A stretch of 58,050 nucleotides of DNA from Halodesulfurarchaeum sp. (GCA_042216015.1 JBDGUI010000026.1:1-58050), one strand, 5' to 3'. Numbered from the stretch's first letter, positions 32,454 through 57,868 are shown. Notes: generated by a model from the sequence alone, not told the origin. Numbers and translations: made by a program.

Positions 32454-34094
32454 TCAGTCGTCGTCCGGACTGATGCCGCCGCTCGGATCGATCTCGCGAT
32501 CGGATGCGTCGTGTTGCTCCTGGGTCAGGAAGATCGGTTCGACCTGACGGAAGGTGCGGATGGTGGCCCACACCGCGATTAGCAGGACGAGGGCGAACGG
32601 TCCACCGGTGAGCACGGAGGCGGTCTGCAACGCGTTCCCGCCGCCGAAGACCATCAGCAGCGATGCGAGTGCACCCATCGTGATCCCCCAGATGGTGCGG
32701 TTGATCGTCGAGGGGTGCTCCTTGCCGCCCGTGGTGAGCATACCCAGCGCGAGCGTCGAGGAGTCCGCGGACGTGACGAAGAAGGTCGTCACGAGTGCCA
32801 GGAACGTGAGCATGAGGAACAGGCCCAGCACACCCGGGAGCAGGGCCTGAAACAGCGGGTAGCCCAGTCCGTCGTATCCGAGGTTGTTGTAGGTCTCGAC
32901 GATCGGGGCGACCTTGTTCACCTCCATCCAGATGGAGGTACCGCCCAGCGCGGCGAACCACGGGATGGTCACGCCAGTGGAGGCGAGCACGCCGGTGCCG
33001 ACCATCTGTCGGACCGTCCGGCCACGCGAAATGCGGGCGATGAACAGCCCGACGAACGGCGCCCACGCGAACCACCAGGCCCAGTAGAACACGGTCCAGG
33101 CAGCCGGGAACGAGGCCGGTTTGAGGCCGGCGGAGTTCACGTACGTGCTGATTGCCGGGAAGAAGGTGATGTACTTCCCGAGTGCGTCAGTACCCAGGTC
33201 GAGGATGTACCCGGTCGGGCCGAAGACGAAGACCACGGCCATCAGGAAGAAGAAAATCACCATGTTGGCGTTCGAGACCCGCTTGATGCCCTTCTCCACG
33301 CCGAGTGCGGCCGAGAGGGTGAAGAAGATCGTCAGGCCCGTGATCATCAGGACCGTGAGCAGGTCGCTCGGTTGAAGCCCGAAGATGTAGGTCAATCCGC
33401 CGAGGAACTGCCCCCCGACGAAGCCGAGCGAGGTCGCGATCCCGCCGATGGTCGCGAACACGCCGAGGATGTCGACGAGTTTCGGCAGCGGGCCATCGAG
33501 GTTCTCCGTGCCGAGGAACGGCGCGAGCACCGTCGAGATCCGGAGCGGTGCGCCATACCGGTAGGCGAAGAACGCGATCGGCAGGGCCAGAAGCACGTAG
33601 AACGACCACGCCGAGATCCCCCAGTGGAAGAACGTGTAGGTGATCGCGTCAACGGCAGCCTGTGGCGTGCCGCCGGCGTAGGGACCACCAAACGGACTGT
33701 TGGCCGGTGGCACCCAAAGCGTGTAGTGGGAGATGGCCTCTGCGGGCCCCCAGAACACGATCCCTGCGGCGATGCCCGCCGAGTAGAGCATCGCGAAGTA
33801 AGACTTGTAGCTGTGCTCCGGTTCCTCGTCGGGCTTGCCGATCCGAATATTGCCCCACGGACCGAAGAAGAGGAAGAGCCCGAAGAGCACCAGGAAGAAG
33901 CCCACCAGGAGGTAGGCCCATCCCAGCGTCGAGGTCATCCAGTTGAAGATGTTGTTGATTACTCTTTTCGACGCCTTCGGGGAGAGAAGCAATGCGAGAA
34001 TCGCGAGAAGCGATACCCCAAGGCCGATGCCATACACCGTCCAATCGATTTCGTCGATGAACGTGCCGATTGCACCTTTGTTTCCTGAACTCAT
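32454..34094 (-). CDS. BCCT-family (betaine/carnitine/choline) transporter
   Basis: AMLYSAGIAAGIVFWG..E, FFHWGISAW, WTVFYWAWWFAWAPFVGLFIARISRGRT, TSADS. Confidence 0.93.
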   Translation of the reverse strand: MSSGNKGAIGTFIDEIDWTVYGIGLGVSLLAILALLLSPKASKRVINNIFNWMTSTLGWAYLLVGFFLVLFGLFLFFGPWGNIRIGKPDEEPEHSYKSYFAMLYSAGIAAGIVFWGPAEAISHYTLWVPPANSPFGGPYAGGTPQAAVDAITYTFFHWGISAWSFYVLLALPIAFFAYRYGAPLRISTVLAPFLGTENLDGPLPKLVDILGVFATIGGIATSLGFVGGQFLGGLTYIFGLQPSDLLTVLMITGLTIFFTLSAALGVEKGIKRVSNANMVIFFFLMAVVFVFGPTGYILDLGTDALGKYITFFPAISTYVNSAGLKPASFPAAWTVFYWAWWFAWAPFVGLFIARISRGRTVRQMVGTGVLASTGVTIPWFAALGGTSIWMEVNKVAPIVETYNNLGYDGLGYPLFQALLPGVLGLFLMLTFLALVTTFFVTSADSSTLALGMLTTGGKEHPSTINRTIWGITMGALASLLMVFGGGNALQTASVLTGGPFALVLLIAVWATIRTFRQVEPIFLTQEQHDASDREIDPSGGISPDDD

Positions 34095-34279
34095 GTGTGT
34101 TATCGTCACCCAACCGTTGGTTGTGGGTCCGATACGCACTAACGATGCCACTCGGGGTTTATGAAATTATTTATTCCTTTTTCGTCATGATCGAACGCCG
34201 ATGTCGAAGAGCACACGCTTTCCAGGGGTTTTAGAACTGATAGATCGGGATAAAGCTGGCGTCGGCGCCAAATATTGCG

Positions 34280-34954
34280 TCACTCGGCGAGCAGATCGAT
34301 CGCCTTCTCCACGGCCGCGTCGGCGTTGTCGGCGTAGCCGTCCGCCCCGATCTCGTCGCGCCACTCCTCGGAGGTCGGTGCGCCACCGACCATGACCTTG
34401 ACCTGATCGCGGACGCCCTCCTCCTCGAGCAGTTCGATGACCTCCTCCTGGTGGTCCATCGTCATGGTCATGAGGGCGGACATGCCGAGGATGTCGGGGT
34501 CCTCGTCCTTGACGGCCTGGACGAAGTCCTCGTTGGGAATCTCGACGCCCAGGTCGACGACGTCGAAGCCGTTGGCCTTCAGCATCGTGATCAAAATGTT
34601 CTTCCCGATGTTGTGGATGTCCTCGTTGACGGTGCCGAGGATGACCTTCCCGGCCGTGTCCTCGTCCCCGAGGTCCATCTCGTCCAAAAGCGGCTCGACG
34701 AGTTCGACGCCGGCCCGCATACAGTCAGCGGACATGGCCAGTTCGGGCAGGAAGACCTCGCCCCTTCCGAACTTGTCACCGACGGTCCGGACCCCCTCGG
34801 TCAGTCCCTCCTGGAGGATGATGAGCGGGCTAATGCCCTTGTCGATGGCCTCCTGGGTGAGTTCGGCCGTTTTGTCCTCCTCGAGGTCGATGATCGCCTG
34901 CTGGATGTCCTCGATGATGGGGTCGAGGTCGTCGGCTGAGTCCTCGTCTGTCAT
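34280..34954 (-). CDS. Methyltransferase cognate corrinoid protein (MttC/MtgC-like)
   Basis: Cap domain VGDKFGRGEVFLPEL; B12-binding DIHNIGKNI (DxHxxG), DLG, GMSALMT, VMVGGAP, IGADGY. Confidence 0.93.
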   Translation of the reverse strand: MTDEDSADDLDPIIEDIQQAIIDLEEDKTAELTQEAIDKGISPLIILQEGLTEGVRTVGDKFGRGEVFLPELAMSADCMRAGVELVEPLLDEMDLGDEDTAGKVILGTVNEDIHNIGKNILITMLKANGFDVVDLGVEIPNEDFVQAVKDEDPDILGMSALMTMTMDHQEEVIELLEEEGVRDQVKVMVGGAPTSEEWRDEIGADGYADNADAAVEKAIDLLAE

Positions 34955-35319
34955 GTGAATCCCTATCCCAATAGGTCGCTGTTGCAAGAATAAAGGTTTT
35001 GGAAACCCGGTCTACCCGTTCGATAGTTGACTCGTTTGCCCCCGCTCCCGTCGTGTGGTTTTCTCGAAAATCGATCGCCCTCGGGCTATACAATCAGACC
35101 TTCATTAAGTAAACTAAAATTGGAACTGCTCGTCCGACAGTATCGGCGTCCCATCCGACAAACTCCCCCTCCCTCGGTTTCCCGTCCCGACAATCGCTTC
35201 TCTTTGCTGGATCTCCGGATCGAACAGGTGAACTCGGCGCTCGTCAATCGCTTTGCTCGGTGTGACGGGTCCGGCTCGCAGAATCTCTCTCGCTCGTGCT
35301 CTCTCACCGTCGCGGGAGT

Positions 35320-37089
35320 TCACTCGATCCCGTCCGGCAAATCGAGATCCGCGAGGCCGAGGGCCTCGAGTAGATCGCCCGTCGGAACGCCCCGGTCGTC
35401 CCAGCCCCGCTCCGCGTAGTACGCCTCCCGCATTGCCTCGAACGCTTCCCTCGAGACGGCCTCACCGGCTCCCGGTCCCTCCCCGATCGGCTCCTCGAGG
35501 ACCGGGGGCAGTTCGTCGTCGGCTCGGTCGAACCCTTCCCGTACGTTGTACAGCCGGGTCATCGTCCAGATGCGTGTCCCGACTCGTCCGAGTGCCTCCG
35601 GCGAGAGATCAAGCCCCACCGCCTCGAGCCACTCCGCCCCGAAGTCCTCCGCGAACAGGGTCTCCGTGAAGTCGTCGGCGATGAGACTCCAGAGCAACGA
35701 CCGGAAGTCCTGCTCCGCGATGACCTCCCGGGCGCGCCGGACGGGTTCGTCCATCTCGGGCTCGAAGACGGCCGTCTCGATCGGTCGGGCCCGGCGGTGA
35801 CACGCCCCGCGGTCGCTCGTCGCGTACGCGAGGGCCATGCTCGGGGCCCGACGGGGGTCATAAGAGGGCAGTTCCATCCCCTTGACCGTCGGGATCAGGT
35901 CCTCGCCGCCGTAGCGGGCGGCAGCCTCGTCGATTCCGTCCGCGAGCGCGTCTCCGAGTTCGGTCCCCCGCGTCGCGATATCCTCGGCGAGGGAGACGGC
36001 GGCATCGAGATCACCGAACTCCCCCTCGAAGTCGATGACGCCCTCCTCGCCGGCCCGAATCGCCCACGCGATCGCGTTGCCCACGCCGATGATGTCCACC
36101 CCCAGCCGATCGCAGGTGAGTCCGAGCCTCGCCACGTCCTCGAAGTCGTCGATGCCCAGGCCGGCACCGAGGGTCATCTGGGTGCCACCACGGGGCGTGC
36201 TCCGCTCGCCGTCGACTGACACCTGGAAACCGCCCGGAATCGACTCGGAGCCGTGTTCGCGCCCCTGCGCGCTCGACTCGACGGCCTCGATTCCGATGTC
36301 GTCGGCCCCCTCGAAGGTGCTCTCCTGCCACCCGCGGGTCGAGAGGGCCCCGACCTCGTCGGCGAAGTCCACGGATTCGACGGTCTCGCTCGCCCGGTGC
36401 CAGTCGTCGGTCGCCCCGTCGCCGTACCGCTCCTCGTACTCGGCCCGGAGGGACTCGAGCCCCTCCGGAGGAGGGTCTCTCACGACGACTGCCTTGAGTC
36501 GCTTCGATCCCATGACTGCCCCGGCACCCCCACGTCCTGCATGATGGTCGCCGCCGTCCGAGGCGATCGTGGCATAGACCACCCTGTTCTCGCCTGCCGG
36601 TCCCGTGCAGGCGACCTTCGCGTCCGGATAGGCCGCACAGGCCGTCTCGACGTCCTCGCTCCACTCTGAGGCCGATTCAATCTCGATGTCGCCGTTTGAG
36701 ACGACGAGCGAGACCGGGTCATCGGCCCGGCCGGTGACGATGATCCCCATCGCGTCGGCCAGGCTCCCGGCCAGGTGGGCGGCGAAGTCGCCGCCGCTGT
36801 AGGAGTCGAGGAACGTGCCGGTGAGCGGCGACTTCGTGATCGCCGCGTAGCGCGGCTCTCCCGGGATCAATCCCGAAATTGGGCCGGTCATGAAGAGCAG
36901 GGCGTTTCCCGGGCCGAGCGGGTCGACTCCCGCTTCGGTTCGCTCGTAGAGATATCGGGCTCCGAGCCCCTTCCCACCGATGAACTGCCGTCGCCAGGCG
37001 GGCGGAATCTCCGCCCGATGGACCGACCGTTCGGTGAGGTCGACTTCGAGCATCGACGTTCGACGGGGTGGGACTGTCTCCGGGCTCAT
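35320..37089 (-). CDS. Aldehyde:ferredoxin oxidoreductase-family protein (atypical)
   Basis: FIGGKGLG, TKSPLTG, GPAGEN, AGRGGAGAVMGSKRLKAV, CDRLGVD, VKGMELPSYDPR, RGACH, YY..RGWD..G.P. Confidence 0.85.
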   Translation of the reverse strand: MSPETVPPRRTSMLEVDLTERSVHRAEIPPAWRRQFIGGKGLGARYLYERTEAGVDPLGPGNALLFMTGPISGLIPGEPRYAAITKSPLTGTFLDSYSGGDFAAHLAGSLADAMGIIVTGRADDPVSLVVSNGDIEIESASEWSEDVETACAAYPDAKVACTGPAGENRVVYATIASDGGDHHAGRGGAGAVMGSKRLKAVVVRDPPPEGLESLRAEYEERYGDGATDDWHRASETVESVDFADEVGALSTRGWQESTFEGADDIGIEAVESSAQGREHGSESIPGGFQVSVDGERSTPRGGTQMTLGAGLGIDDFEDVARLGLTCDRLGVDIIGVGNAIAWAIRAGEEGVIDFEGEFGDLDAAVSLAEDIATRGTELGDALADGIDEAAARYGGEDLIPTVKGMELPSYDPRRAPSMALAYATSDRGACHRRARPIETAVFEPEMDEPVRRAREVIAEQDFRSLLWSLIADDFTETLFAEDFGAEWLEAVGLDLSPEALGRVGTRIWTMTRLYNVREGFDRADDELPPVLEEPIGEGPGAGEAVSREAFEAMREAYYAERGWDDRGVPTGDLLEALGLADLDLPDGIE

Positions 37090-37561
37090 GAACACTCGGT
37101 AGTGGATACGGGTTGAGAAGTCCACCGGTTTCGGCGAGTACCCGAGCTACGACAGTCGTCCCGTCTTTTCCCTCCACCCGGTCGGTACTGACGGGGTGTC
37201 AGGCTCATCGCTTCGAAGACCTCCAATTGTGCCGGACGAACCATTCTTCATGCGTGACACTTTTACCGTCGACCGTCGCCGGTTCCCGGTGTCCCACGAT
37301 GGTCGTCACCCATGAGTTTCCGAATACACTACGTGATTCTGTCAGGTCTGTGCCGCCACCCTCTCCCACTTTTCCATAACGTGAAATGTCATCCACCATT
37401 TGATGGCACGACGCTTTTATACATTGTGTATCACCAACTTCGTTAGTTATATGTGCAAAACCGGCTAGACAAATTGATGTGGGGCCGGTTCACATCCTGC
37501 GACGATCGGAAGGATCGTCGCCTCATGGCGATCGCACGTGGACAGTCCCGAGGTACAATAA

Positions 37562-40102
37562 ATGAGTTCGAACACACTACCCGACAGCGCCGGTACAGTA
37601 ATTATCGGCGCCGGCATCGTGGGGAACAGTCTCGCATATCATCTCGCAGATCAGGGTCGAGAGGACATTTTGCTCGTGGACAAGGGCCCGCTGCCCGACC
37701 CGGGTGGATCGACCGGTCACGCATCGAACTTCCTGATGCCGGTCGAGCATTCAAAGGAGATGACTGAGCTCACCCAGGACGCCATCGAGCAGTACAAGGA
37801 GGCCGGCGTCTTCACGAAGGCCGGTGGGCTCGAGGTCGCCCGGACCGAGGAACAGATGGAGGAGAACAAGCGCCGGGTTCAGTCCGCGAAGGCCTACGGG
37901 GCCAACGCCAAACTCATCGACGCCGATGAGGTCAAAGAGCTCGTCCCGTACATCAACGAGGACATCATCAAGGGCGCCATGTACGCGCCCGACGCCGGTG
38001 TCTGTGACTCCCTCCAGTTCGGTGAGATCTGCCGCGAGCGCGCGAAGGACATGGGCGCACTGACGGTCTCGCCGAACACGGAGGTCACCGACATCCACAC
38101 CGAGTGGGACACCGTCACCGAGATCGAGACCGACCGTGGTAACGTGAAGGTCGAGGACGAACTCGTCATTGCCGCCGGTATCTGGAGCCCGAAACTGGCC
38201 GAGATGGCGGGCACCCGCATTCCGCTCACCCCGGCGGTCCACCAGATGATCAGCGTCGGCCCCATCGAGCAGTTCGAGGAGCGGGGCGTCGAGGGCATTG
38301 AAGACCCGATCGTCCGTGACATGGACCACCGGATGTACGAACGCCAGCACGGCAGCGAGATCGAGGTCGGCTCCTATTCGCATCGACCGATCCTGTGGGA
38401 CGTCGAGGATATCCCGTCCATCGACGAGGCGCCGCTCTCTCCGACCCAGCCGCCGCTCACCGACGACGCCTTCGAGGAGTCGATGGAGCACGCTCTCGAG
38501 ATCATGCCGGAGATCCTGGACGACCCCAACGCGGGGATCCGCCACTCCATCGACGGCCTGCTCTCTCTGACTGCCGACGGCGGCCCGGTCGTGGGTCCGG
38601 TCAAGGACCTCGACAACCTGTGGTCCGTCGCGGCCATCTGGATCAAGGAGGCACCAGCCATCGCGAAGGAGGTCGCAAAGTGGATGACCCAGGGCTACGG
38701 TGCCATCGAGACGGACCTCGAGGGCATCAACATCGCCCGCTACGACGAGTACGGTCGCGCCGAGGACTACATCGACGCCCGCTCGAGGGAGGGCTTCCGC
38801 AAGATCTACGGTACAGTACACCCCTCCGAGCAGTGGCAGAGTGCCCGTCCACTCCGCACGACGGGCTTCCACGACCGCCTCGAGGAGCACGACGCCGAAT
38901 TCTGGGAGTCCGCCGGCTGGGAACGGCCGCGCTGGTTCCGGGAGAACGCGGACCTCCTTCAGACGTATCAGCAGACCATCAACGAGTTTTCCCGACCCAA
39001 CGAGTGGGACCGTCGCTGGTGGTCGCCGATCATCCTGGCCGAGCACCTGCACATGCGGGATAACGTCGGTCTGATCGGGGACATGGGCTTTGGCATCTAC
39101 GAACTCCAGGGGCCAGACGCCCTCGACATGGCGGAGAAACTCACCGTCGGCCGGATGGACGTCGACGTGGGCGATCTCGTCTACACGCCGGTCCTCGACG
39201 AGGAAGCTGGCTTCCGCGCAGACCTCACCGTCGTCCGTCTCGGCGAGGATCACTTCCGCTTCATCACCGGTGGCGGAGACGCCGGTCACGACAAGCAGTG
39301 GATCCGACAGCACATGGAGGGCGACATGGAGGTCGAGCTCGTCAGCAAGAGCTCCGCCCTCGGGACGATGGGCGTCTGGGGTCCGAATGCCCGGAAGGTC
39401 ATGCAGCAGATCACCGTGGAGGACATGTCCGATGAGGCCTTCCCCGCCTACACGGCAAAGGAGGTCCACATCGGCGACGTCGAGGCCTTCGCGATGCGCC
39501 TCTCCTACGTCGGTGAACTCGGCTGGGAGATCTACGCACCGATGGAGCAGACCGGTCGCCTGTGGGACACCATCTACGAGGCCGGCCAGGAGTACGATCT
39601 CCGTCCGGTCGGGACGGGTGTCTACGGTTCGACCGGTCGCATGGAGAAGGGCTACCGCCTACTCGGTGCGGAACTCGAGGCGGATTACAACCCGGTCGAG
39701 GCCGGACTCGACTTCCACGGCGTGAAGGACGCCGACTTCATCGGCAAGGATGCCTACGTCGAGGCCGTCGAGAGCGAGCCAGCGGCCAAGCTCTGCACGC
39801 TCTCCGTGAAAGATCACTCCCCGAACGGTGGCGAGGAACGCTACCCGCTCGGCGGCGAGCCGGTCAAGGACCTCGACGGGAACGTCCTGATCGACGACGA
39901 GGGCCGTCGCTCGTACGTCACGAGCGCAGCGACCGGGCCGTCCGTCGGCAAGCACCTCCTGATGGCGTACATTCCGACGGACATCGCCGAGGAGGGCAAA
40001 GAGCTGCAGATCGAGTACTTCGGCGAGGACTACCCGGTCGAGATCGAAGTCGTCGGTGCCCGACCGCTGTTCGACCCGAGCAACGAGCGGATCCTGAGCT
40101 AA
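37562..40102 (+). CDS. Dimethylglycine dehydrogenase/oxidase-like flavoprotein with GcvT (THF-binding) domain
   Basis: VIIGAGIVG, GGSTGHAS (flavinylated-His motif), GWERPRWF, RLSYVGELGWEIY, RMEKGYR; followed by etfBA. Confidence 0.88.
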   Translation: MSSNTLPDSAGTVIIGAGIVGNSLAYHLADQGREDILLVDKGPLPDPGGSTGHASNFLMPVEHSKEMTELTQDAIEQYKEAGVFTKAGGLEVARTEEQMEENKRRVQSAKAYGANAKLIDADEVKELVPYINEDIIKGAMYAPDAGVCDSLQFGEICRERAKDMGALTVSPNTEVTDIHTEWDTVTEIETDRGNVKVEDELVIAAGIWSPKLAEMAGTRIPLTPAVHQMISVGPIEQFEERGVEGIEDPIVRDMDHRMYERQHGSEIEVGSYSHRPILWDVEDIPSIDEAPLSPTQPPLTDDAFEESMEHALEIMPEILDDPNAGIRHSIDGLLSLTADGGPVVGPVKDLDNLWSVAAIWIKEAPAIAKEVAKWMTQGYGAIETDLEGINIARYDEYGRAEDYIDARSREGFRKIYGTVHPSEQWQSARPLRTTGFHDRLEEHDAEFWESAGWERPRWFRENADLLQTYQQTINEFSRPNEWDRRWWSPIILAEHLHMRDNVGLIGDMGFGIYELQGPDALDMAEKLTVGRMDVDVGDLVYTPVLDEEAGFRADLTVVRLGEDHFRFITGGGDAGHDKQWIRQHMEGDMEVELVSKSSALGTMGVWGPNARKVMQQITVEDMSDEAFPAYTAKEVHIGDVEAFAMRLSYVGELGWEIYAPMEQTGRLWDTIYEAGQEYDLRPVGTGVYGSTGRMEKGYRLLGAELEADYNPVEAGLDFHGVKDADFIGKDAYVEAVESEPAAKLCTLSVKDHSPNGGEERYPLGGEPVKDLDGNVLIDDEGRRSYVTSAATGPSVGKHLLMAYIPTDIAEEGKELQIEYFGEDYPVEIEVVGARPLFDPSNERILS

Positions 40103-40181: not shown

Positions 40182-40931
40182 ATGGAAACACTAGCCTGTA
40201 TCAAACGCGTTGCGGACACCGGGGCAGAGATCGTCCTGACCGACGACAAGCAGTCGGTCGACGCCTCCGCCGTGGGCTACACGATGGGCCCACACGAGGA
40301 ATGTGCGATCGAGGAGGCGGTCCAGACCGTCGAGGAGGAGGGCGGCACGTCGACGGTACTGAGTCTCGGCCCCGAGGACGTGGAGGACCAGATTTACGAA
40401 GGAATCGGCCGCGGTGCCGACGAGGGGATCATTCTCGAGACCGACGGCGGGGAGTGGGGCCCCGAATCCACGGCCACCGCCATCGCCGACGCCGTCGAGG
40501 ATCGAGAATTCGATCTCCTCTTCTTCGGCAACGAGTCGGGTGACAATGCGAACTACCAGGTCGGGATTCGCGTCGCCCACCAGCTCGGCCTGCCGGTCGT
40601 GACCGGAATCAAGGACTTCGAGGTGGACGGGGAGACGGCCATCGCCAAACGCGACGTCCCCGGCGGCTCGGAGGTCTTCGAGGTCGACATCCCCGCCGTC
40701 ATCACCGTCAAGGAGGGCCTGAACACGCCGCGCTACCCGTCGATGCGCAGTCGAATGCAGGCCAAGAAGACCGAACTCGAGGTCATCGAACCGAAAGAAA
40801 CCGAGGATGGCCTGCAGATGCAGGAACTCGAAACGCCCGAGGCGGAGGACGAAGAGGCAGAAGTCCTCGGCGAAGGGCCCGAGGCTGTGGACCGTGCCGT
40901 CGAGGTTCTCGAGGAACTGGAGGTGCTCTAG
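40182..40931 (+). CDS. etfB: Electron transfer flavoprotein beta subunit
   Basis: CIKRV, AIEEAV, RGADEG, G..S.D...QVG, NTPRYPS. Confidence 0.92.
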   Translation: METLACIKRVADTGAEIVLTDDKQSVDASAVGYTMGPHEECAIEEAVQTVEEEGGTSTVLSLGPEDVEDQIYEGIGRGADEGIILETDGGEWGPESTATAIADAVEDREFDLLFFGNESGDNANYQVGIRVAHQLGLPVVTGIKDFEVDGETAIAKRDVPGGSEVFEVDIPAVITVKEGLNTPRYPSMRSRMQAKKTELEVIEPKETEDGLQMQELETPEAEDEEAEVLGEGPEAVDRAVEVLEELEVL

Positions 40932-40932
40932 G

Positions 40933-41901
40933 ATGGTGCTGACACTCATCGAGCACGCAGACGGAGAAATCGAGGAGACCTCTCTCGAGATGCTGACCCT
41001 TGCCCGGGACATCGCCGAACAGGTCGATGAGGACGTAGCCGCGGCGATGTTCGGCGGTTCGGACCTCGCCGCGGACCTGGGCGAGTACGGGGTCGACACC
41101 GCGTACGTCTGTGAGGGCGACCTCGCGGAGACGTATGCACCGGAGGCCCGTGCGGAGGCACTCGGCGTCCTGATCGACGACCTGGACCCCGCAGCATTGG
41201 TGGGCGGTGGGACCGAGACCGCAAACGAGGTCTTTGCCCACCTCAGCGCGAAGCAGGACCTCGCGATGTCGGCGAACACGCTCGAGATCGAGGCCGACGG
41301 TGAAACCTGGGAACTCACCCGCCAGCGGTGGGGCGGCAGTTTGCTCGAACATTCGACGATGTCCGGAGAGGCGAAAGTCTTCACGACGCCGGAACACGAA
41401 CTTCCGATCGAGACCGTCGGCGAGGGCGAGGCCACCGTCGAGACGGTCAGTCCGAACGTCGAGGACGCCTCCTTCGAGGTCAAAGTCGACCGAATCGAGG
41501 AATCAGACGTGGAGGGTGTCCCGCTTCCGGAGGCCCGGATCGTCGTCGGTGGCGGCCGCGGGGTCGGCAGCGCCGAGGACTTCGACCAGCTTGAGGAGCT
41601 TGCCGACCTCTTCGATGGCGCGACCGTCGGGGCAAGCCGCATTGCTGTCGACGAGGGCTGGCGGCCCCACGACGACCAGATCGGCCAGACCGGTCAGAAG
41701 ATCTCCCCCGATCTGTACATCGCCGCCGGCATCAGCGGTGCCGTCCAACACTGGGTCGGTGCGAAGGGCGCGGAGAACGTCCTGGCCATCAATATCGACC
41801 CGGAGGCGGCGATCATGTACAAGGGCGATTACGCCATCGTGGGCGACCTCCACGAGGTCGTGCCCGAACTGATCGAGGCCATCAGGGCCGCGAAGGAGTA
41901 G
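40933..41901 (+). CDS. etfA: Electron transfer flavoprotein alpha subunit
   Basis: EARIVVGGGRG, VGASR, QIGQTG, LYIAAGISGAVQH, AINIDPEA. Confidence 0.93.
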   Translation: MVLTLIEHADGEIEETSLEMLTLARDIAEQVDEDVAAAMFGGSDLAADLGEYGVDTAYVCEGDLAETYAPEARAEALGVLIDDLDPAALVGGGTETANEVFAHLSAKQDLAMSANTLEIEADGETWELTRQRWGGSLLEHSTMSGEAKVFTTPEHELPIETVGEGEATVETVSPNVEDASFEVKVDRIEESDVEGVPLPEARIVVGGGRGVGSAEDFDQLEELADLFDGATVGASRIAVDEGWRPHDDQIGQTGQKISPDLYIAAGISGAVQHWVGAKGAENVLAINIDPEAAIMYKGDYAIVGDLHEVVPELIEAIRAAKE

Positions 41902-49050: not shown

Positions 49051-49051
49051 T

Positions 49052-49408: not shown

Positions 49409-49448
49409 GCCACCCGATTGGGGGAGGGATGTAGTAAACCTGTGGGGC

Positions 49449-51521
49449 TCAGTCCGCACTCGATTCGGTGACGTCGACGGAGATGGTGGCGGCGGCCACC
49501 TTGAACTCGGGGATTTTCGCCACCGGGTCCATGGCATCGTTCGTCACCCGGTTCGTGGGCGAATCCTCGAAGTGGGGGGTCGTCCACACGACTCCCCGCT
49601 TCGTGGCCTCGGTCACGTTCGCTCGAACGTCGATCTCCCCGCGTCGGGTTCGCAACTGGACCATGTCGTCGTCCTCGATCCCCCGCTCCTCGGCGTCTTC
49701 CGGATGAATGTCGATGAAGTTGTGATCGGTCTTCCGCATGAGGTTCTCCGAGCGCCGGCTCATCTCTCCGGTGTTGTAGTGTTCCTCGATGCGGCCGGTC
49801 GTGAGTACGAGCGGGTACTCCTCGTCCTCGACCTCGGCCGGTGGCTGATGGCTCACACCGCGGATCTTCCCGAGCCCGTCCTCGGTCGGGAACTCCTCTT
49901 TGTGGAGGTACTGAGTCCCCTCGTCGTCCTCGCTCTCGACGGGCCACTGCATGCCCGTCTCGCCGATTCGGTCGTAGGTGAGCCCGGCGTAGATCGGGGC
50001 GACCTCGCGGAGTTCCTCGAAGACCTCCTCGGGGTCCCCGTAGGCAAAGCCCTCGCCGAACAGACGCGTACCGATCTCGCTCAGGATGTCGAAGTCGTGG
50101 CGGGTATTTCCCGGGACGTCGACGGCGGGACGCATGCGCTGGACGCGGCGGTCGGTGTTCGTCACCGTACCGCCACGTTCGACCCACGAGGTCGCCGGCA
50201 GGACGACGTCGGCGAGCTTCGCGGTCTCGGTCATGAAGATGTCCTGGGCGACCATGAACTCGAGTTCCCCCAGATTCTCCCGGACCTCGTCGGAGTTCGG
50301 CTCGCTCAGGACGGGATTCTCGCCCATGACGTAGAGCGACTGGATCTCCTCGCCGGCCGCGTTCGTCACCTCGAGACTCGTCAGGCCGTTCTCAGCCGGC
50401 GGCTCGAAGCCCCAGACCTCGGCAACGGCGGCTCGATCCTCGGGATCCTCCACCTCGCGGTAGCCCGGCAGGACGTTGGGAAGCGCGCCAACGTCGCTCG
50501 TCCCCTGGACGTTGTTCTGCCCGCGAAGCGGGTTGATCCCGGTTCCCGGCTTTCCCAGGTTCCCGGTCACGAGCGCGAGATTGATGAGGTTCTGGACGTT
50601 GTCGGTGCCACATGACTTCTGGCTCATTCCCATGCCCGTGAAGATGGCCCCGTTCTCGGCCTCGGCGAAGGTCCGGGCGGCCTCCTTGACCGTCTCGGCA
50701 TCGACTCCGGCGGTTTCGGCGGCCTCTTCGACGTCGAAGTCCGCGAGTTCGGTCTCCAGGGACTCGAATCCCCTCGTCCGCTCGGCGATGAACTCCTCGT
50801 CGTAGAGGCCTTCCTCGAGGATCGTCTTCAGGACGATGTTCAAGAGCGGGATGTCCGTGCCCGGCTTGACCTGCAGGTGGACGTCCGCGGACTTCGTGGT
50901 CTTGTTCTCGTGGGGGTCGACCTGGATGACCGTCGTCCCCTCGTTTGCGGCCTGCTTGAAGTACTTCGAGTGGCCGATGACGTGCTGCTCGGCCGGATTT
51001 GCCCCCTGGATCCAGTAGACGTCACTTGCCTCTTTCAGATCGGCCATACTGTTGGTCATCGCACCCGTGCCCAGACTGTCACGCAGCGCAGCCACGGTCG
51101 AGGCATGACAGAGCCGGGTGCAGTTATCGATATTGTTCGACCCGTATCGCCGGGCCAGCTTCTGGAGGAGGTAGTTCTCCTCGTTCATCACCTGCGAGGA
51201 GGCGAAAAAGCCCGCGGCTTCCGGTCCGTACTCCTCGCGAATCGACTCGAGTCCCTCGACGACGCGGGAGATGGCCTCCTCCCAGGTCGCCTCTCGAAAC
51301 TCACCGTCTTCCTTGATGAGGGGTTCTGTCAGGCGGTCCTCGTGGTCGACGTGCTGGACGGCGGCACTTCCCTTCACACAGAGTGCGCCCTCGTTGACCG
51401 GGGCGTCGAACCACGGTTTGAAGTTCACCGATCCGGGCTCCTCGCCCGGCTCGAGTTTGAGCCCACAGCCGACCCCACAGTACGGGCAGATCGTCTTGAC
51501 CGAATCGTCCTCAGTGCTCAT
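49449..51521 (-). CDS. fdhF: Formate dehydrogenase alpha subunit (FdhF/FdhA-like, Cys type), copy 1
   Basis: CPYCGVGC...CVKG, NEENY, IDNCTRLCHAST, LRGQNNVQG, GTVTNTDRRVQ, DPVAKIPEFK; no Tat leader; alternative ATG at 51533. Confidence 0.92.
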   Translation of the reverse strand: MSTEDDSVKTICPYCGVGCGLKLEPGEEPGSVNFKPWFDAPVNEGALCVKGSAAVQHVDHEDRLTEPLIKEDGEFREATWEEAISRVVEGLESIREEYGPEAAGFFASSQVMNEENYLLQKLARRYGSNNIDNCTRLCHASTVAALRDSLGTGAMTNSMADLKEASDVYWIQGANPAEQHVIGHSKYFKQAANEGTTVIQVDPHENKTTKSADVHLQVKPGTDIPLLNIVLKTILEEGLYDEEFIAERTRGFESLETELADFDVEEAAETAGVDAETVKEAARTFAEAENGAIFTGMGMSQKSCGTDNVQNLINLALVTGNLGKPGTGINPLRGQNNVQGTSDVGALPNVLPGYREVEDPEDRAAVAEVWGFEPPAENGLTSLEVTNAAGEEIQSLYVMGENPVLSEPNSDEVRENLGELEFMVAQDIFMTETAKLADVVLPATSWVERGGTVTNTDRRVQRMRPAVDVPGNTRHDFDILSEIGTRLFGEGFAYGDPEEVFEELREVAPIYAGLTYDRIGETGMQWPVESEDDEGTQYLHKEEFPTEDGLGKIRGVSHQPPAEVEDEEYPLVLTTGRIEEHYNTGEMSRRSENLMRKTDHNFIDIHPEDAEERGIEDDDMVQLRTRRGEIDVRANVTEATKRGVVWTTPHFEDSPTNRVTNDAMDPVAKIPEFKVAAATISVDVTESSAD

Positions 51522-51692
51522 GGTAATTGGCATCCCGGAGACCCGGGTTCGGTTGGAATTGGGGACAGATGATTAATAAGGTTCGGCAGCGGGGGGATGT
51601 CGCCGGCTCTCTCAGGTTCGGTTCGTCCAGGCAAATCCCGATCCCGCTCTCAAATACGGAAAACGGGGAATTCGTGGCGAATGTGGGCCGGT

Positions 51693-53393
51693 TTAGAAGA
51701 GCCCGGAGATCGTGCCGTCGGCGTCGATGTCCATGTCGGCGGCCGCCGGGCGGGCGGGGAGGCCGGGCATGGTCATGACGTCACCGGTGAGCGCGACGAC
51801 GAACCCGGCACCTGCGGATGGGTAGAGTTCGCGGACGTCGAGCTCCCAGTCGGTCGGGACGCCCTTCTTGGAGGCGTCGTCGCTGAAGGAGTGGAAGGTC
51901 TTCGAGAGGACGACCGGCACGTCGTCCAGGCCCATCTCCTTGAGCTGGGCGATGTCCTCCTCGGCGGAGCCAACGTAGTTGACCCCGCCGGCGCCGTAGA
52001 TCTTCGTCGCAACCGTCTCGATTTTCTCCTTGAGCGAGGCATCGAGGTCGTAGAGCGGGGCCCAGTTGCGGTCTTCGTTCTCGACCTTGTCGACGATTTT
52101 CTCCGCGAGTTCAGCACCGCCCGCGCCGCCCTCGCCGAAGACGTTGGACTCGGCGGCCGGGACGTCCATCTCCTCCTCGTAGTGCTCGATGATCGCGTCG
52201 ATCTCGGCCTGGGTGTCCTGCGGGAACCGGTTGATGGCCACGATGACGGGCACGCCGAACTGCTGCAGATTGCGAACGTGCTTGTCGAGATTCGGGAACC
52301 CGGCCTTGACGGCCTCGACGTCCTCATTCTCGAGCTCGTCGGCGTCGAAGGGCCACATGTCCTTGCCGTGGTACTTGAGTGCCCGGGCGGAGGCCACGAG
52401 CACCATCGCGTCGGGGTGGATGTCACTGAGCTGGCTCACGACGTTGTTGAACTTCTCGCCGCCGAGGTCCGAGCCGAAGCCGGCCTCGGTGATGAGGTAA
52501 TCGCCCATCTTCAGGCCGACCTTGTCCGCGATGAGGGAATTGGTGCCGTGGGCGATGTTCGCGAACGGACCGCCGTGGACCAGGGCCGGGGTCCCTTCGA
52601 TGGTCTGGACGATGTTCGGGCGAAGCGCGTCACGGAGCAGGATCGTGGCCGCGCCGGCGGCCTCGATGTCGCCCGCGGTGACGGGGTCGCCGTCCTCGTC
52701 GTAGGCGACGATGATACGACTGATGCGCTCTTTGAGGTCTCCGAGGTCCTCGGCGAGGCAGAGAATGGCCATCAGCTCGGAGGCGGCCGTCAGGACGTGT
52801 TCGTCCATCCGGGTGACGCCAGCCGAGTCGCCGGCGCCGACGATGGTCTGGCGCAGGGCACGGTCGTTGTGGTCGACGGCCCGTGGCCACGCGACACTCG
52901 TCGAGTCGATTTCAAGTTCGTTGCCCTTCGAGATGTGGGCGTCGAGCATCGCGGAAATCAGGTTGTGAGCCGCCGTGAGCGCGTGGATGTCCCCCGTGAA
53001 GTGGAGGTTGATGTCCTCCATCGGGAGCACCTGCGACCAGCCTCCGCCGGCCGCGCCGCCCTTGATCCCGAAGACTGGGCCCAGAGAGGGCTCGCGGATG
53101 GCGATCATCGCGTCCTCGCCGATGTGGTTGAACGCCTGGCTGAGTCCGACGGTGGTAACCGTCTTCCCCTCGCCCATCGGTGTCGGCGTCATGCCGGTCA
53201 CGAGTACGAGATTGCCGTCCTCCTCGTCGCTCTCGAGGAGGTCGTCGATGGCCTCCTCGCTGATCTTGGCCTTGTAGTCTCCGTAGAGTTCGAGGTCATC
53301 CTTCTCGAGTCCGAAGGGTTCGGTGACCTCCCAGATCGGTTTCTCGTCTACGGATTGTGCGATCTCGTAGTCAGTCTCTGGTTCCGAGGACAT
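51693..53393 (-). CDS. fhs: Formate--tetrahydrofolate ligase
   Basis: TPTPMGEGKT, REPSLGP.FGIKGGAAGGG, NLHFTGD, VHGGPFANIAHG, TEAGFG.DLG.EKF, MTMPGL. Confidence 0.97.
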   Translation of the reverse strand: MSSEPETDYEIAQSVDEKPIWEVTEPFGLEKDDLELYGDYKAKISEEAIDDLLESDEEDGNLVLVTGMTPTPMGEGKTVTTVGLSQAFNHIGEDAMIAIREPSLGPVFGIKGGAAGGGWSQVLPMEDINLHFTGDIHALTAAHNLISAMLDAHISKGNELEIDSTSVAWPRAVDHNDRALRQTIVGAGDSAGVTRMDEHVLTAASELMAILCLAEDLGDLKERISRIIVAYDEDGDPVTAGDIEAAGAATILLRDALRPNIVQTIEGTPALVHGGPFANIAHGTNSLIADKVGLKMGDYLITEAGFGSDLGGEKFNNVVSQLSDIHPDAMVLVASARALKYHGKDMWPFDADELENEDVEAVKAGFPNLDKHVRNLQQFGVPVIVAINRFPQDTQAEIDAIIEHYEEEMDVPAAESNVFGEGGAGGAELAEKIVDKVENEDRNWAPLYDLDASLKEKIETVATKIYGAGGVNYVGSAEEDIAQLKEMGLDDVPVVLSKTFHSFSDDASKKGVPTDWELDVRELYPSAGAGFVVALTGDVMTMPGLPARPAAADMDIDADGTISGLF

Positions 53394-53796: not shown

Positions 53797-55260
53797 TCAG
53801 GCCTCGTCCATGATCCGGGCGGACTCCTCCTCGACGAAGGCGTTCAGGGCGTCCTGAATGTCCTCGTCGAGTTCCGGCTTCGAGTAGGCCTCGAGGTGCT
53901 CCTGGACCTTGTCGTGGCCCATCTCGAAGGCGGTCTTCTCACCGTCGTCCTTCCAGTCACCGTGGGAGCGCTTGTCAACGAGTTCGGGGATGAGGAAGTC
54001 CTCCCCAGCGAACTTCAGGGTGTGGGACTCGCCGAGGAAGTGGTCGTCGGGATCGATCTTCTCGACGACGTCAAGGGCGAGCATCTCCTCGTCGATGGTG
54101 TAGCCTTCCTGGAAACGGTCGAGGAAGCGAAGGGCTTCCGCGTCGAGGACGAATTTCTCCGGCGAGATGGTGGAATAGGACTCGATGATGCCGGCCGCGT
54201 GGAGAATGAAGTCCACGCCGGAGAACTCCGTGGCCATGTTGACAAGCATCGACTCGAAGCCGGCCTGGTAATCGACCGTCTTCGAGTCAGTGAGCCCCCC
54301 ACCACCACGGGAGGGAACGCCGTAGTACCGGCCCATCGTCCCGGCGAAGTTCGCGAAGAGCGCGGACTCCGCGCTGCCGATCGAGAGCGACCCATAGCGC
54401 ATGTCGAGGTTCGAGGCCGGGACCCCGTAGACGACGGGGTTGCCGGGGTTGATGAGCTGGGCGAGGGCGATGCCCATCAGGTTCTCCGCGTTCGCGAGTG
54501 CAACCGCGCCGGCCATCGTGCCCGGTCCGGACGCGCCGGCCTGGATGAACGAGGAGACGACGGGCGCCTGACCCTCCTTTGCGAGGCCGACGAGCCCGCC
54601 GGTCATCGCCTTATCGTGGGTTCGTGGTGGGACGGTGTTGACCAGGCCCGCCGCGTAGGTCTTCGAGAGGTCCGGATCGTCGACGGCGATGCCGACCATC
54701 TCGAGGTTGGCGTCCGTCCGGTCCTGGCCGTAGGTCGAGACCATGACCGGCAGGTCGGTGTACTCGAGCGAGCGCTTGACCATTTCGAGGTGCTTGACCT
54801 CCTGGTCGACGTCGGTCGGTTCGGCGGCATTGTAGCCCGTCGAGTTGATCACGTCCTCCTGCTGAGCCAGTTTCATGAACAGCTCGTAGTCCTCGACCGT
54901 CGAGCTGCGCCGACCGTCCTCGAAAGTGCGGATGTTCGGTGCCCCATATCCCGGCGCCCGGAAGGTATCCCCGCCGCCGATTTCGAGGTTGTTGTCTGGG
55001 TTCCTGGCATGCAGAGTGAAGGACTCGGGTGCTTCCTCGACCTTCTCCTCGATCAGCGAGCGGTCGGCCTTGACGAGATACTCGTCCTCGATGGTTGCAC
55101 CTGCCTCCTCGAAGTACTCGATCGCCTCGTCGTGCTTGACTTCGATACCCAATTCTTCGATGATGTACATCGAGGCCTCGTGAATGGCGTCACGCGCCTC
55201 CTCGTCGAGGCGGTCGATATACGGCGTCTGCTGTGTTTCGAGATCGAATTCGAGACTCAT
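53797..55260 (-). CDS. Non-pyrrolysine trimethylamine methyltransferase (MttB) family, MtgB-like glycine betaine:corrinoid methyltransferase
   Basis: APESFTLHARNP, PGYGAP, EPTDV, GASGPGTMAG, NAENL, LDMRYG, PSRGGGGLTDSK.VDYQAGFES, HAAG; no in-frame amber codon. Confidence 0.9.
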   Translation of the reverse strand: MSLEFDLETQQTPYIDRLDEEARDAIHEASMYIIEELGIEVKHDEAIEYFEEAGATIEDEYLVKADRSLIEEKVEEAPESFTLHARNPDNNLEIGGGDTFRAPGYGAPNIRTFEDGRRSSTVEDYELFMKLAQQEDVINSTGYNAAEPTDVDQEVKHLEMVKRSLEYTDLPVMVSTYGQDRTDANLEMVGIAVDDPDLSKTYAAGLVNTVPPRTHDKAMTGGLVGLAKEGQAPVVSSFIQAGASGPGTMAGAVALANAENLMGIALAQLINPGNPVVYGVPASNLDMRYGSLSIGSAESALFANFAGTMGRYYGVPSRGGGGLTDSKTVDYQAGFESMLVNMATEFSGVDFILHAAGIIESYSTISPEKFVLDAEALRFLDRFQEGYTIDEEMLALDVVEKIDPDDHFLGESHTLKFAGEDFLIPELVDKRSHGDWKDDGEKTAFEMGHDKVQEHLEAYSKPELDEDIQDALNAFVEEESARIMDEA

Positions 55261-55341
55261 AGCGTACAACACGACTATCGATGGTTCGCCAGTTAAGTAT
55301 ACCTGATGCTGCCCGGATTTCGCCGGTACCAACAACCCCCG

Positions 55342-55746
55342 TCAGTTCCGGTCGTCGTACCCGCCTTCAGCGACCTCGTATTCGCCGAAGTCCTCCCTGG
55401 TTCCGATCGGTGGCGCCCCGAACATGATCCAGACGGTGGGCTCATCGCCAGTGTTCAGCACCTGTCGCGGGACGCCAGACCCCACTCGAACGATACCTCC
55501 CTCCGGAACCTCGTGGTGCTCGCCGTCGATATACACCTCTCCGGCCCCGTCATGACAGACGTAGATCTCCTCCTGGCGCCTGTGGGTGTGATAGCCGACG
55601 ATCTCGCCCGGGTCGACGGTGACCTGATTCACCCGCATCTCCTGGGCACGCAATTCGCCGGAGAGTTTGCGGTGGGTCACGCCGGATTCGGGAAACGGCG
55701 TCTGTGGGATCGAGTCGGGATCGACGATCCGGTAGTTCTTCGCCAT
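55342..55746 (-). CDS. Cupin-domain protein
   Basis: YHTH..QEEIY...G.G motif 1, G..VRV....PRQV.N motif 2. Confidence 0.82.
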   Translation of the reverse strand: MAKNYRIVDPDSIPQTPFPESGVTHRKLSGELRAQEMRVNQVTVDPGEIVGYHTHRRQEEIYVCHDGAGEVYIDGEHHEVPEGGIVRVGSGVPRQVLNTGDEPTVWIMFGAPPIGTREDFGEYEVAEGGYDDRN

Positions 55747-55822
55747 CGATCGGCCCTTCGACAGCCGTCCTGAAAAAGGCGCGTGTCGGTCGAAAACCGC
55801 CCCCGAACAGGAAAAATCCCGG

Positions 55823-57868
55823 CTACTCCGCGAGCGAGACGGAGACACCGCTGTGCTTGAATTCGGGGATCTTCGCCACCGGGTCGAGGTAATCCCCGAC
55901 GAGAGTGTTGACGAGCGGCTCGGCGTAGTGGAAGGTCATGAACACCGTCCCCTCCGTGATCGCCGGTGTCACGGCGACCTCGACCTCGACCTCGCCCCGC
56001 TCGTTTTCGACGGTCACCCAGTCGCCGTCCTCGATACCTCGCGCCTCCGCGTCGCTCGGGTGCATCTCGAGGGTGTCCTCCCCGCGCATGCGCATGAGCG
56101 TCTCCGTCCGGCGGGAGAGCGCCCCGCTGTTGAAGTGCTGGAGGACCCGACCAGTCGTGAGCACGAGTTCGCCCTCCTCGAGTTCGTCCCCCGGCGGGAT
56201 GTGTCCAACCGCGGCGAACTCGGCGGTTTTCGAGCCGCTGTAAAACTCGCCTTCGTGGAGCACGTCGACGCCTTCATCGGTTCCCTCGTAGAAGGGCCAG
56301 CGCTGGTAGCTCTCCCCGATGCCGTCGTAGGACATGCCCGCGTAAATCGGGCTCACCGACGTGAGTTCGTCGAAGACCGCCTCCGGATCGTCGTACTCGA
56401 CGTCGAGGTCGGTCATCCGGCGACCGAACTCCTGAATGATTTCGAGGTCAGTTTTCGCGTCCCCCGGCGGGTCCCGCATCTGGCGCATCAGCTGGACCCG
56501 ACGGTCGGTGTTCGTCACCGTGCCGGTCTTCTCGGCCCAGGCGCTGCCCGGCAGGATCACGTCGGCGTGTTCGGCGGTCTCGGTCATGAAAAGGTCCTGG
56601 ACGACGAGGAAGGCCTCATCGAGTTCCTCGCGGATACGGCCGGAATGCGGTTCGGTGATCGCCGGGTTCTCGGCGAAGACGTAGAGGCCCTGGATCTCCT
56701 CGCCCGCGGCGTGACTCGCCTCGACCTCCGTGAGTCCCGGCTCGGCCGGCGGTTCGAATCCCCAGGCCTCCTCGAAATCGGCCCGGACCTCGGGGTCCTC
56801 GACGGACTGGTAGCCCGGAAGCGAGCTCGGGCTGGCGCCCACATCGCCGGCGCCCTGAACGTTGTTCTGGCCCCGGAGTGGATTCACGCCCGTTCCAGGT
56901 TTGCCGATGTTTCCGGTGAGCAGCACGAGGTTGATCAGCGCGTGGACGTTGTCGGTCCCGTACTTGTGCTGGCTCATGCCCATGCCGGTGAAGGCGGCGG
57001 CCCGCTCGGCCTCGGCGAAGGTCCGGGCAGCCTCGCGGATCGTCCCCTCCTCGACCTGCGCCAGTTCGGCGTTCTCTGTCACGTCGACGTCGGCGAGGTG
57101 CTCCTGGAAGGCCTCGAACCCCTCGGTGCGCTCCTCGATGAATTCCTCGTCGTACAGCCCCTCTTCGAGGATGACCTTCGCCATGGCGTTCAGCACGGGA
57201 ATATCGTAGCCCGGGGTGACCGGGACGTGCTGGTCGGCCTGTCGGGTGGTCTGATTCTCGCGCGGGTCGACGTGAATCAGTTCGGTCCCGTTTCGGATTG
57301 CCGGCCCGAGGTGAGAGTTGAAGATGACCGGATGCTGCTCGGCGGGATTGGCACCGCAGGCGAGGAACACGTCGGCCTCGCCGAGGTCGTCGGTGGTATT
57401 GGTCATCGCGCCCACGCCAAGGCGGTCGGCCATGGCGGCGACAGTGGAGGCGTGACAGAGTCGCGCGCAATTGTCGATCGTGTTCGTTCCGATCTTTCGG
57501 GCGATCTTCTGGAGGAGGTAGTTCTCCTCGTTCGTGCAGTTCGAGGAGGCGAAAAAGGCAAGCGCCTCGGGTCCGTGTGCCTCGACGATCTCGGAGAAGT
57601 TCTCGACGATCCGGTCGAATGCTTCGTCCCATGAAGCCGTCACCAGATGGCCGTTCTCCCGGACCATCGGTTGTGTCAGCCGATCGTCGGCGTCGAGCAT
57701 CTCGAAGGCGGCTGCTCCCTTCGGGCAGAGCTCGCCTCGGGTGTTGACCGATGCTTCCCAGCCGGTTCCTTTGCCGTTGTCCGCGTTGTACGTCAGTCCA
57801 CACCCGACCCCACAGAAGGGGCAGATGGACTTTTGCGGCTCCAGTTCGCCGTCACTGGCTGTTGCCAT
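55823..57868 (-). CDS. fdhF: Formate dehydrogenase alpha subunit (Cys type), copy 2
   Basis: CPFCGVGC...CPKG, NEENY, IDNCARLCHAST, LRGQNNVQG, DPVAKIPEFK. Confidence 0.92.
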   Translation of the reverse strand: MATASDGELEPQKSICPFCGVGCGLTYNADNGKGTGWEASVNTRGELCPKGAAAFEMLDADDRLTQPMVRENGHLVTASWDEAFDRIVENFSEIVEAHGPEALAFFASSNCTNEENYLLQKIARKIGTNTIDNCARLCHASTVAAMADRLGVGAMTNTTDDLGEADVFLACGANPAEQHPVIFNSHLGPAIRNGTELIHVDPRENQTTRQADQHVPVTPGYDIPVLNAMAKVILEEGLYDEEFIEERTEGFEAFQEHLADVDVTENAELAQVEEGTIREAARTFAEAERAAAFTGMGMSQHKYGTDNVHALINLVLLTGNIGKPGTGVNPLRGQNNVQGAGDVGASPSSLPGYQSVEDPEVRADFEEAWGFEPPAEPGLTEVEASHAAGEEIQGLYVFAENPAITEPHSGRIREELDEAFLVVQDLFMTETAEHADVILPGSAWAEKTGTVTNTDRRVQLMRQMRDPPGDAKTDLEIIQEFGRRMTDLDVEYDDPEAVFDELTSVSPIYAGMSYDGIGESYQRWPFYEGTDEGVDVLHEGEFYSGSKTAEFAAVGHIPPGDELEEGELVLTTGRVLQHFNSGALSRRTETLMRMRGEDTLEMHPSDAEARGIEDGDWVTVENERGEVEVEVAVTPAITEGTVFMTFHYAEPLVNTLVGDYLDPVAKIPEFKHSGVSVSLAE

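Follow-up and report, generated by a model that had tools for sequence, protein, structure and literature searches.

We found that a gene cluster at positions 32454-57868 of the 58,050-nucleotide stretch analysed here (the window, which is contig C8 of a Halodesulfurarchaeum genome that we call G000) is probably, at roughly three chances in four, a catabolic glycine betaine (GB) demethylase of the MtgBCA type, coupled to a dimethylglycine (DMG) dehydrogenase and to a folate branch that runs oxidatively. The genome comprises 1.68 Mb in 51 contigs and is 86.6% complete, and all genome-wide absences given below are to be read on that scale. An earlier reading made from the sequence alone had placed an importer, a corrinoid methyl relay, a flavoenzyme with its electron-transfer flavoprotein (ETF) and a set of folate and formate enzymes in one block, and every gene it listed was found there as an uninterrupted open reading frame (ORF). 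The route it had proposed, from betaine through DMG to sarcosine, draws sequence support from the betaine site of MtgB, the pterin core of MtgA and the residues of DMG oxidase, each of which has a counterpart here.

The MttB-family protein of the cluster passes the sequence tests for MtgB: it belongs to the MttB superfamily, is of the non-pyrrolysine kind and carries the predicted betaine site. Leucine (L348) occupies the pyrrolysine position in a continuous ORF, the best match in the PDB is Desulfitobacterium hafniense MtgB (9yce/2qne, E 5e-118), and the closest named records are Halodesulfurarchaeum metagenome-assembled genomes (86-94% identity). In the D. hafniense enzyme the betaine site is formed by Y97, R312, H348 and F356, and the F356Y variant is nearly wild type, with a Km of 1.2 versus 0.88 mM (PMC13080624). 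Y130, R343, H379 and Y387 of the cluster protein (512-aa numbering) align with these residues; all four positions are kept, and the sole change is the tolerated F356Y. Of the 120 matches listed, 41 share 60% identity or more, and 39 of these have the motif; among the 79 more distant ones, 59 have it. It does discriminate, because the second MttB of this genome (C18:12383-13795) reads R-R-N-F at the same positions; the ortholog of this second protein is scarce in the published proteome of H. formicicum (PMC5437934). A second RACE gene lies at C18:1-1872, cut by the contig end.

The remaining parts of a methyl relay stand in the same block. The corrinoid protein has the sequence DIHNIG, an instance of the DxHxxG motif, and exceeds the TIGR02370 cut-off (228.8 versus 215.3 bits); the RACE protein combines a 2Fe-2S domain with the ASKHA domains of RACo (AcsV model, 455/800); and the MtgA-like protein finds its best PDB match in D. 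hafniense MtgA (6sj8, E 6e-64). All six residues of the pterin core (S32, D75, D102, N129, D194 and N227) are kept in alignment to 6sj8, although they may be common to MtrH and alone do not separate tetrahydrofolate (THF) from tetrahydromethanopterin. We infer that THF is the methyl acceptor because FolC/P, FolD, Fhs and MetF adjoin and MtrA was not found in the genome. Identity as a methanogen-type Mtr subunit H was rejected, since the MtrH model TIGR01114 stays under its cut-off (216/271) and MtrA was not found in the 86.6%-complete genome. Elsewhere in the genome, a second corrinoid protein is encoded at C3:64490-68960, where it has a neighbour resembling URO-D/MtaA and lies next to a LigM/GcvT-like gene, and the complete genome G002 of the same genus has more corrinoid cassettes near 1.72-1.74 Mb.

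The flavoenzyme is well supported as a predicted dimethylglycine dehydrogenase/oxidase type, with an FAD domain fused to a GcvT folate domain. Its best PDB match, over the full length, is DMG oxidase (1pj5, E 3e-133), and it retains H48, H225, Y259 and D552, which we take to be the catalytic residues of that oxidase. No second full-length copy was found in the genome, where SHMT and a separate glycine-cleavage set (GcvT/H/P, on C3) also occur; an EtfAB with FixC/FixX-like genes is encoded on C4, as judged by sequence inspection.

By sequence and by predicted structure, the cluster MetF comes nearest, among solved proteins, to the methylenetetrahydrofolate reductase (MTHFR) of Sphingobium SYK-6: the sequence match is E 1e-23 to 7xg9 versus 1e-9 to Thermus MTHFR, and the model (pLDDT 81.9) gives Z 25.0 to the SYK-6 enzyme (rmsd 3.0 over 261 aligned residues) versus 23.5 to that of E. 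coli, a modest margin. The SYK-6 enzyme oxidises methyl-THF formed by demethylases. A second, longer MetF (517 aa) is encoded on C17. The sequence-only reading had spoken of the bacterial-type Wood-Ljungdahl methyl branch; the name fits that branch and not a complete pathway, acetyl-CoA synthase (PF03598) not being found in the genome and CooS alone being present. We thus take the branch to be an oxidative one rather than a route of carbon fixation, because that synthase was not found. The genome also has no match to PF02574, the BHMT/MetH homocysteine domain. Mch was matched, but it is matched in Haloferax volcanii as well and was given no weight.

Under this reading the BCCT protein would import GB, and MtgB would move one of its methyl groups to the corrinoid protein in its Co(I) state, with RACE keeping that protein active; MtgA would hand the methyl to THF, leaving DMG and CH3-THF. 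The flavoenzyme is predicted to convert DMG to sarcosine and CH2-THF with electrons passing to EtfAB, from which FixCX on C4, or some other ETF oxidoreductase, would presumably deliver them to menaquinone. A third demethylation would require the same flavoenzyme to take sarcosine, because no second full-length copy was found. MetF would run in the oxidative direction, FolD and Fhs would yield formate and ATP, and the two cytoplasmic formate dehydrogenases would take formate to CO2, while the same folate branch would also feed one-carbon (C1) units into biosynthesis. The electrons would enter respiration, with sulfur or dimethyl sulfoxide (DMSO) in relatives like H. formicicum and, more likely here, nitrate or traces of O2. 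The genes lie in the following order along the window; several longest-ORF starts are too long, and likely starts were taken from upstream sequence and homolog lengths.

29986..32388, plus strand: FolC-FolP fusion for folate synthesis and polyglutamylation, a cofactor-supply gene (TIGR01499 and TIGR01496 above cut-off)
32454..34151, minus strand: BCCT-family importer, likely start 34094 (PF02028, E 1e-152)
34280..34987, minus strand: corrinoid protein, MtgC-like, likely start 34954 (DIHNIG motif, TIGR02370)
35320..37125, minus strand: aldehyde:ferredoxin oxidoreductase, AOR family (PF02730, PF01314)
37562..40102, plus strand: dimethylglycine dehydrogenase-like flavoenzyme with folate-binding domain (DAO, FAO_M, GCV_T, GCV_T_C)
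40182..40931, plus strand: EtfB (PF01012)
40807..41901, plus strand: EtfA, likely start about 40933 (PF00766, PF01012)
42088..42978, minus strand: FolD (NF010764, 508 bits versus cut-off 477)
42963..43952, plus strand: MetF, likely start 43116 (PF02219, E 3e-13)
44056..44964, plus strand: putative methylcorrinoid:pterin methyltransferase of the MtgA/MtrH family (PF02007, E 2e-71)
45202..47178, minus strand: RACE/RamA-type corrinoid reductive activator, likely start 47154 (Fer2 and the RACo linker, middle and C-terminal domains)
47281..48267, plus strand: AstE/AspA-family hydrolase (PF24827)
48322..49050, plus strand: YqeC accessory protein (TIGR03172 above cut-off)
49449..51533, minus strand: cytoplasmic formate dehydrogenase alpha 1 (FdhA), Cys form, likely start 51521 (TIGR01591, 776/666; RLCH motif)
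51693..53393, minus strand: formate-THF ligase Fhs (NF010030, 802/652)
53797..55335, minus strand: non-pyrrolysine MttB-family methyltransferase, likely start 55260, giving 487 aa (PF06253, E 2e-142)
55342..55848, minus strand: cupin (PF07883)
55823..57868, minus strand: cytoplasmic formate dehydrogenase alpha 2 (FdhA), Cys form (TIGR01591, 711/666)
57977..58049, plus strand: tRNA-Val(TAC), at the cluster border

The block is made up of several units on both strands and is not a single operon. Four genes within it (those for AOR, the AstE/AspA-family hydrolase, YqeC and the cupin) had been missed in the first gene list, as had the flanking FolC-FolP fusion and the bordering tRNA. AOR may oxidise formaldehyde or betaine aldehyde, and the two FdhA share 55% identity. 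Cobalamin-salvage genes (CobD-like, CbiB and a BtuF-like binding protein) stand at 23950-28388 of the window. The proteins are acidic and of the salt-in type, with 15-25% D+E in soluble products. Recent transfer of the cluster is unsupported, its composition (GC 0.642, GC3 0.847) matching that of the genome (0.653 and 0.804, sd 0.064). An Rfam scan returned the tRNA-Val only, with no cobalamin or THF riboswitch, and a scan for promoters and terminators stayed at shuffle level, with a sigma-70 model that is unsuited to archaea. Strongly conserved non-coding blocks, shared by five or six genomes of the genus, stand at 37380-37560, 53400-53450 and 34960-35000, upstream of the DMG dehydrogenase, Fhs and corrinoid genes, respectively; they are probably archaeal promoters, and the DMG dehydrogenase gene is preceded in addition by a conserved leader, whose folding is weak (z -1.65).

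The cluster is not a chance grouping, because the order of its 18 genes recurs across the genus: it is identical in five Halodesulfurarchaeum genomes (G001, G002, G011, G004 and G005), and four partial loci (L013, L015, L016 and L017) agree with it as far as each extends. A synteny check had been proposed at the outset to tell co-conserved from scattered components, and on this evidence the cluster is co-conserved. AOR, the AstE-like hydrolase, YqeC and the cupin stay in position across the genus, several of them also in G012, G399 and G417, and FolC-FolP adjoins the cluster in the genus loci and in G012, G100, G349, G399 and G053. MttB is found in 9 of the 11 other genus genomes (in one of the nine, 57% complete, as a distant paralog only) and MtgA likewise in 9 of 11. 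The BCCT gene of G001:C2 (L030/L031) is in two overlapping pieces, possibly through a frameshift or an assembly error.

Beyond the genus we surveyed an even sample of 401 Halobacteria genomes. MttB occurs in 11 of these and MtgA in five, all five with MttB and with RACE, which occurs in no others; four of the five belong to Halodesulfurarchaeum and are not independent. Homologs of the DMG dehydrogenase are found in 88 genomes, 45 of them at 62% identity or more, mostly without a corrinoid module. The cluster had been called atypical for Halobacteria, which thus holds for its corrinoid half (5/401) and fails for its flavin and folate half (88/401). G012 and G417 carry MtgA, MtgC and RACE in rearranged loci, and L018 has the corrinoid genes as well. 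Loci in G100, G349, G399 and G053 (L064-L071) combine MttB, Fhs, FolCP and genes of the DMG-dehydrogenase family, with no match to MtgA, MtgC or RACE in those loci; their MttB often has Asn in place of H348. The haloarchaeal homologs of MtgA group together (67 clusters, 63-94% identity), and among named matches outside this group identity is 50% in an MSBL1 archaeon and 42-44% in Bathyarchaeia. A bacterial origin is not established, because the nearest named non-haloarchaeal relatives of MtgA are from MSBL1 and Bathyarchaeia.

The same locus has been published for the sister species H. formicicum HTSR1 as HTSR_1736-1753, annotated with FdhA (HTSR_1736 and 1740), Fhs (1739), MetF (1746), FolD (1747), EtfAB (1748-49) and a 'glycine cleavage T' protein (1750), and was read there as metabolism from formate to methyl-THF (PMC5437934). 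By locus-tag annotation the gene order is the same, from FdhA, a hypothetical protein, MttB, Fhs and FdhA through RACE, MtrH, MetF, FolD, EtfAB, 'GcvT', AOR and the corrinoid protein to BCCT and FolP, and MttB is 88% identical; the differences are that the HTSR1 locus was read as formate C1 metabolism, and that G000 carries CooS and has 4 rather than 9-10 molybdopterin oxidoreductases. The words 'betaine' and 'corrinoid' are absent (0 times each) from the main text of that paper, although in its supplements the transporter is annotated as one for betaine and HTSR_1738 carries the name mttB (PMC5437934). In three formate-grown proteomes (Table S11), HTSR_1750 accounts for 0.86-2.47%, Fhs for 0.58-1.46%, MttB for 0.45-0.93%, the MtrH-like protein for 0.21-0.62%, RACE for 0.18-0.60% and the corrinoid protein for 0.22-0.55% (PMC5437934). 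The system is live in H. formicicum.

Several observations weigh against GB catabolism as the role of the cluster. The expression in H. formicicum does not show induction by betaine, because those proteomes came from formate-grown cells; yeast extract was no donor with sulfur, and the donors listed there do not include betaine (PMC5437934). The authors of the MtgB study regard the motif as a minimum set, with further determinants (PMC13080624). The MtgA-like protein lacks the folate-tail residues H38, S226, Y230, R236 and W272, with tail residue Y35 kept, and reaches 249 bits against a cut-off of 550 for NF047990, the NCBIfam model of MtgA, while the MtgC-specific models stay under cut-off for the corrinoid protein (220/310 and 201/370). 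By these models the two are MtgA-like and MtgC-like rather than family members. The best NCBIfam model for the importer is the betaine BCCT NF047988, at 441 bits against a cut-off of 650, and its scores against DddT, a trimethylamine (TMA) transporter, BetT and BetP lie within 20 bits of one another, so its substrate is not settled by scores. No beta or gamma partner genes of FdhA stand in the block, which bears on the electron carrier of these enzymes. On rough figures from midpoint potentials, oxidation of CH3-THF (+12 kJ/mol) and DMG (about +50 kJ/mol) is uphill with S0 and downhill with DMSO, nitrate or O2.

Among the alternatives, the published view fares best, and we consider it unlikely: that the block serves mainly to carry formate to methyl-THF for biosynthesis, with betaine demethylation only topping up methyl groups, and with FdhA/EtfAB electron bifurcation and NADH-dependent reduction of methylene-THF (PMC5437934). 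The abundance of the block in formate-grown cells is in keeping with this, as are the adjoining FolC/P, the reversibility of FolD and Fhs, and the tie between a corrinoid betaine demethylase and methionine synthesis in aerobic Ruegeria (PMC12478193). Yet it leaves MtgB, MtgC, MtgA, RACE and BCCT unexplained, and it counts HTSR_1750 as glycine-cleavage T, when the ortholog is of the full DMG-dehydrogenase type and GcvT/H/P are encoded separately on C3. The cluster MetF is nearest to the SYK-6 enzyme while a second MetF lies elsewhere, and it is hard to see why biosynthesis would call for the cell's most abundant protein.

The same design could instead serve a different substrate, with the importer and MttB handling some other N-methyl compound (proline betaine, for example) or with DMG or sarcosine as the main input, which we think distinctly improbable. 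BCCT scores are equally good for carriers of dimethylsulfoniopropionate, TMA, choline and betaine, the genus has MtgB paralogs with other motifs, and DMG-dehydrogenase homologs occur widely (88/401), mostly apart from any corrinoid module. Against both stands the fit between the parts, the product of GB demethylation being the exact substrate of the adjacent DMG dehydrogenase. The aromatic pair of MtgB, reported as unconserved in MtcB, MtpB, MthB and MtyB, enzymes that between them act on carnitine, proline betaine, butyrobetaine and phosphocholine, is moreover present here (PMC13080624). Reverse flux, in which methyl-THF from formate or CO would methylate DMG to betaine as an osmolyte or electron sink, is very improbable: corrinoid methyl transfers are chemically reversible, expression on formate is high in H. 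formicicum and this genome has CooS-CooC, but the proteins are acidic and of the salt-in type, the importer and DMG dehydrogenase suit breakdown rather than synthesis, and we know of no precedent for betaine synthesis by corrinoid methylation of DMG.

The catabolic GB demethylase that we favour has its nearest counterpart in D. hafniense, where MtgB, MtgC, MtgA and the RamA-type DSY3152 likewise share one locus (PMC13080624, PMC7154762). Both systems have a non-pyrrolysine MttB with a betaine site and an MtrH-fold MtgA with the pterin core, and in both methyl-THF would be oxidised for anaerobic respiration, not acetogenesis. The cluster described here differs in being archaeal and acidic and in adding a DMG dehydrogenase with EtfAB, D. 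hafniense being described as yielding DMG; its MtgA folate-tail residues differ, and the NCBIfam cut-offs for MtgA and MtgC are not reached. The aerobic MtgBCD/MetF2 system of Ruegeria pomeroyi shares an MttB-family demethylase and a MetF paralog of its own, for which oxidation of methyl-THF has been proposed, and differs in using split methionine-synthase parts (MtgC/MtgD) with no MtrH-type MtgA in the published description (PMC12478193).

As electron acceptor, S0, one of those named with the sequence-only reading, is doubtful for this genome, Psr-type operons being missing at three syntenic sites. Only four molybdopterin oxidoreductases are present, versus 9 and 10 in the complete genomes G002 and G011: the two FdhA, a membrane formate dehydrogenase (C43) and, on C2, an enzyme of the type II DMSO-reductase family. 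The last of these has cytochrome b and Rieske-like neighbours and is closest to PDB 4ydd/5e7o and NarG; we take its operon to be a haloarchaeal nitrate-reductase operon. NrfD has no match in this genome, although 10 of the 12 genomes of the genus have one, and the three PhsA/PsrA-like operons of G002 (all under model cut-off) are missing at the in-contig syntenic sites of G000:

C18:3181-3385: site 1, flanks about 0.2 kb apart
C18:27236-28644: site 2, flanks about 1.4 kb apart, with a remnant match
C1:98051-98823: site 3, flanks about 0.8 kb apart

Archaellum-like genes of G002 at the C1 site are likewise missing in G000. No ortholog was found of two DMSO-type operons and one Ttr-type operon, each with a flank at a contig end, so that loss is not established for these. 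Cytochrome bd is present, and a qNor-type nitric oxide reductase at 10550-12847 of the window is the sole COX1-family match in the genome; NirK was not found in the assembly. Because the Psr-type operons are missing and a Nar-type reductase, bd oxidase and qNor are present, nitrate or low O2 appears the likelier acceptor here than sulfur, although incompleteness of the genome weighs against nitrate, as does the lack of growth with nitrate in the H. formicicum isolates tested (PMC5437934). Full-length COX1-family oxidase matches (E <1e-129) occur in G001, G003, G005, G007, G008 and G009, in a genus described as strictly anaerobic. CooS (TIGR01702 above cut-off) with a CooC-like ATPase next to it lies at C32:2556-5318 (L094); four of the 12 genomes of the genus have CooS, neither complete one among them, and CO oxidation may extend to Halodesulfurarchaeum.

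The novelty of these findings is below what was first claimed, the locus having been published for the sister species under another reading. The name ending '-GB' was used for betaine enrichments from the same laboratory in a paper (PMC9796771) that also cites 'Microbial glycine betaine utilization in hypersaline soda lakes' (2021; Sorokin, Microbiology 90:567). Close MttB homologs occur in Halodesulfurarchaeum sp. HSR-GB (87%), Halalkaliarchaeum AArc-GB, AArc-CO, H. desulfuricum and Haloarculaceae H-GB strains, and the names HSR-GB, AArc-GB and H-GB may likewise mark betaine enrichments; the cluster representative of H-GB2-1 (P0136) has Phe at the R312 site. AArc-GB, AArc-CO and H. desulfuricum have their MttB homologs in the same clusters. 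The 2021 paper and a 2022 carboxydotrophy paper by Sorokin et al. in ISME J reportedly describe strains of Halalkaliarchaeum and/or Halanaeroarchaeum that demethylate GB oxidatively in dependence on sulfur, whereas G000 is without Psr-type operons. That haloarchaea respiring sulfur can use betaine is probably already in print. Passages of a 2024 review name formate, H2, fatty acids, peptone, sugars and CO as donors and do not name betaine, and neither 'betaine' nor 'corrinoid' occurs (0 times) in the main text of PMC6176080; our literature search returned no account of haloarchaea that demethylate betaine through a corrinoid, though the two papers most likely to contain one were outside its reach. 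What is added here is residue-level support, a MetF of the oxidative type, and the loss of sulfur reductases with a Nar-type enzyme in their stead.

One could envision, tentatively and with more doubt than confidence, a lineage that does not respire sulfur and lives on GB methyl groups, along with CO and formate, using nitrate or trace O2 through a B12 relay of an archaeal clade and an oxidative MetF. If so, the genus would depend at its catabolic core on betaine methylotrophy rather than on formate use, and H. formicicum would have a DMG dehydrogenase, misannotated so far, as its most abundant protein. GB is a main source of TMA, and hence of methane, in hypersaline sediments (PMC9796771), and a haloarchaeon that demethylates GB directly to DMG and CO2 would divert carbon from methanogens. 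The acceptor swap suggested for this genome would broaden what is known of the physiology of Halodesulfurarchaeum, which has been described as respiring strictly with sulfur or DMSO.

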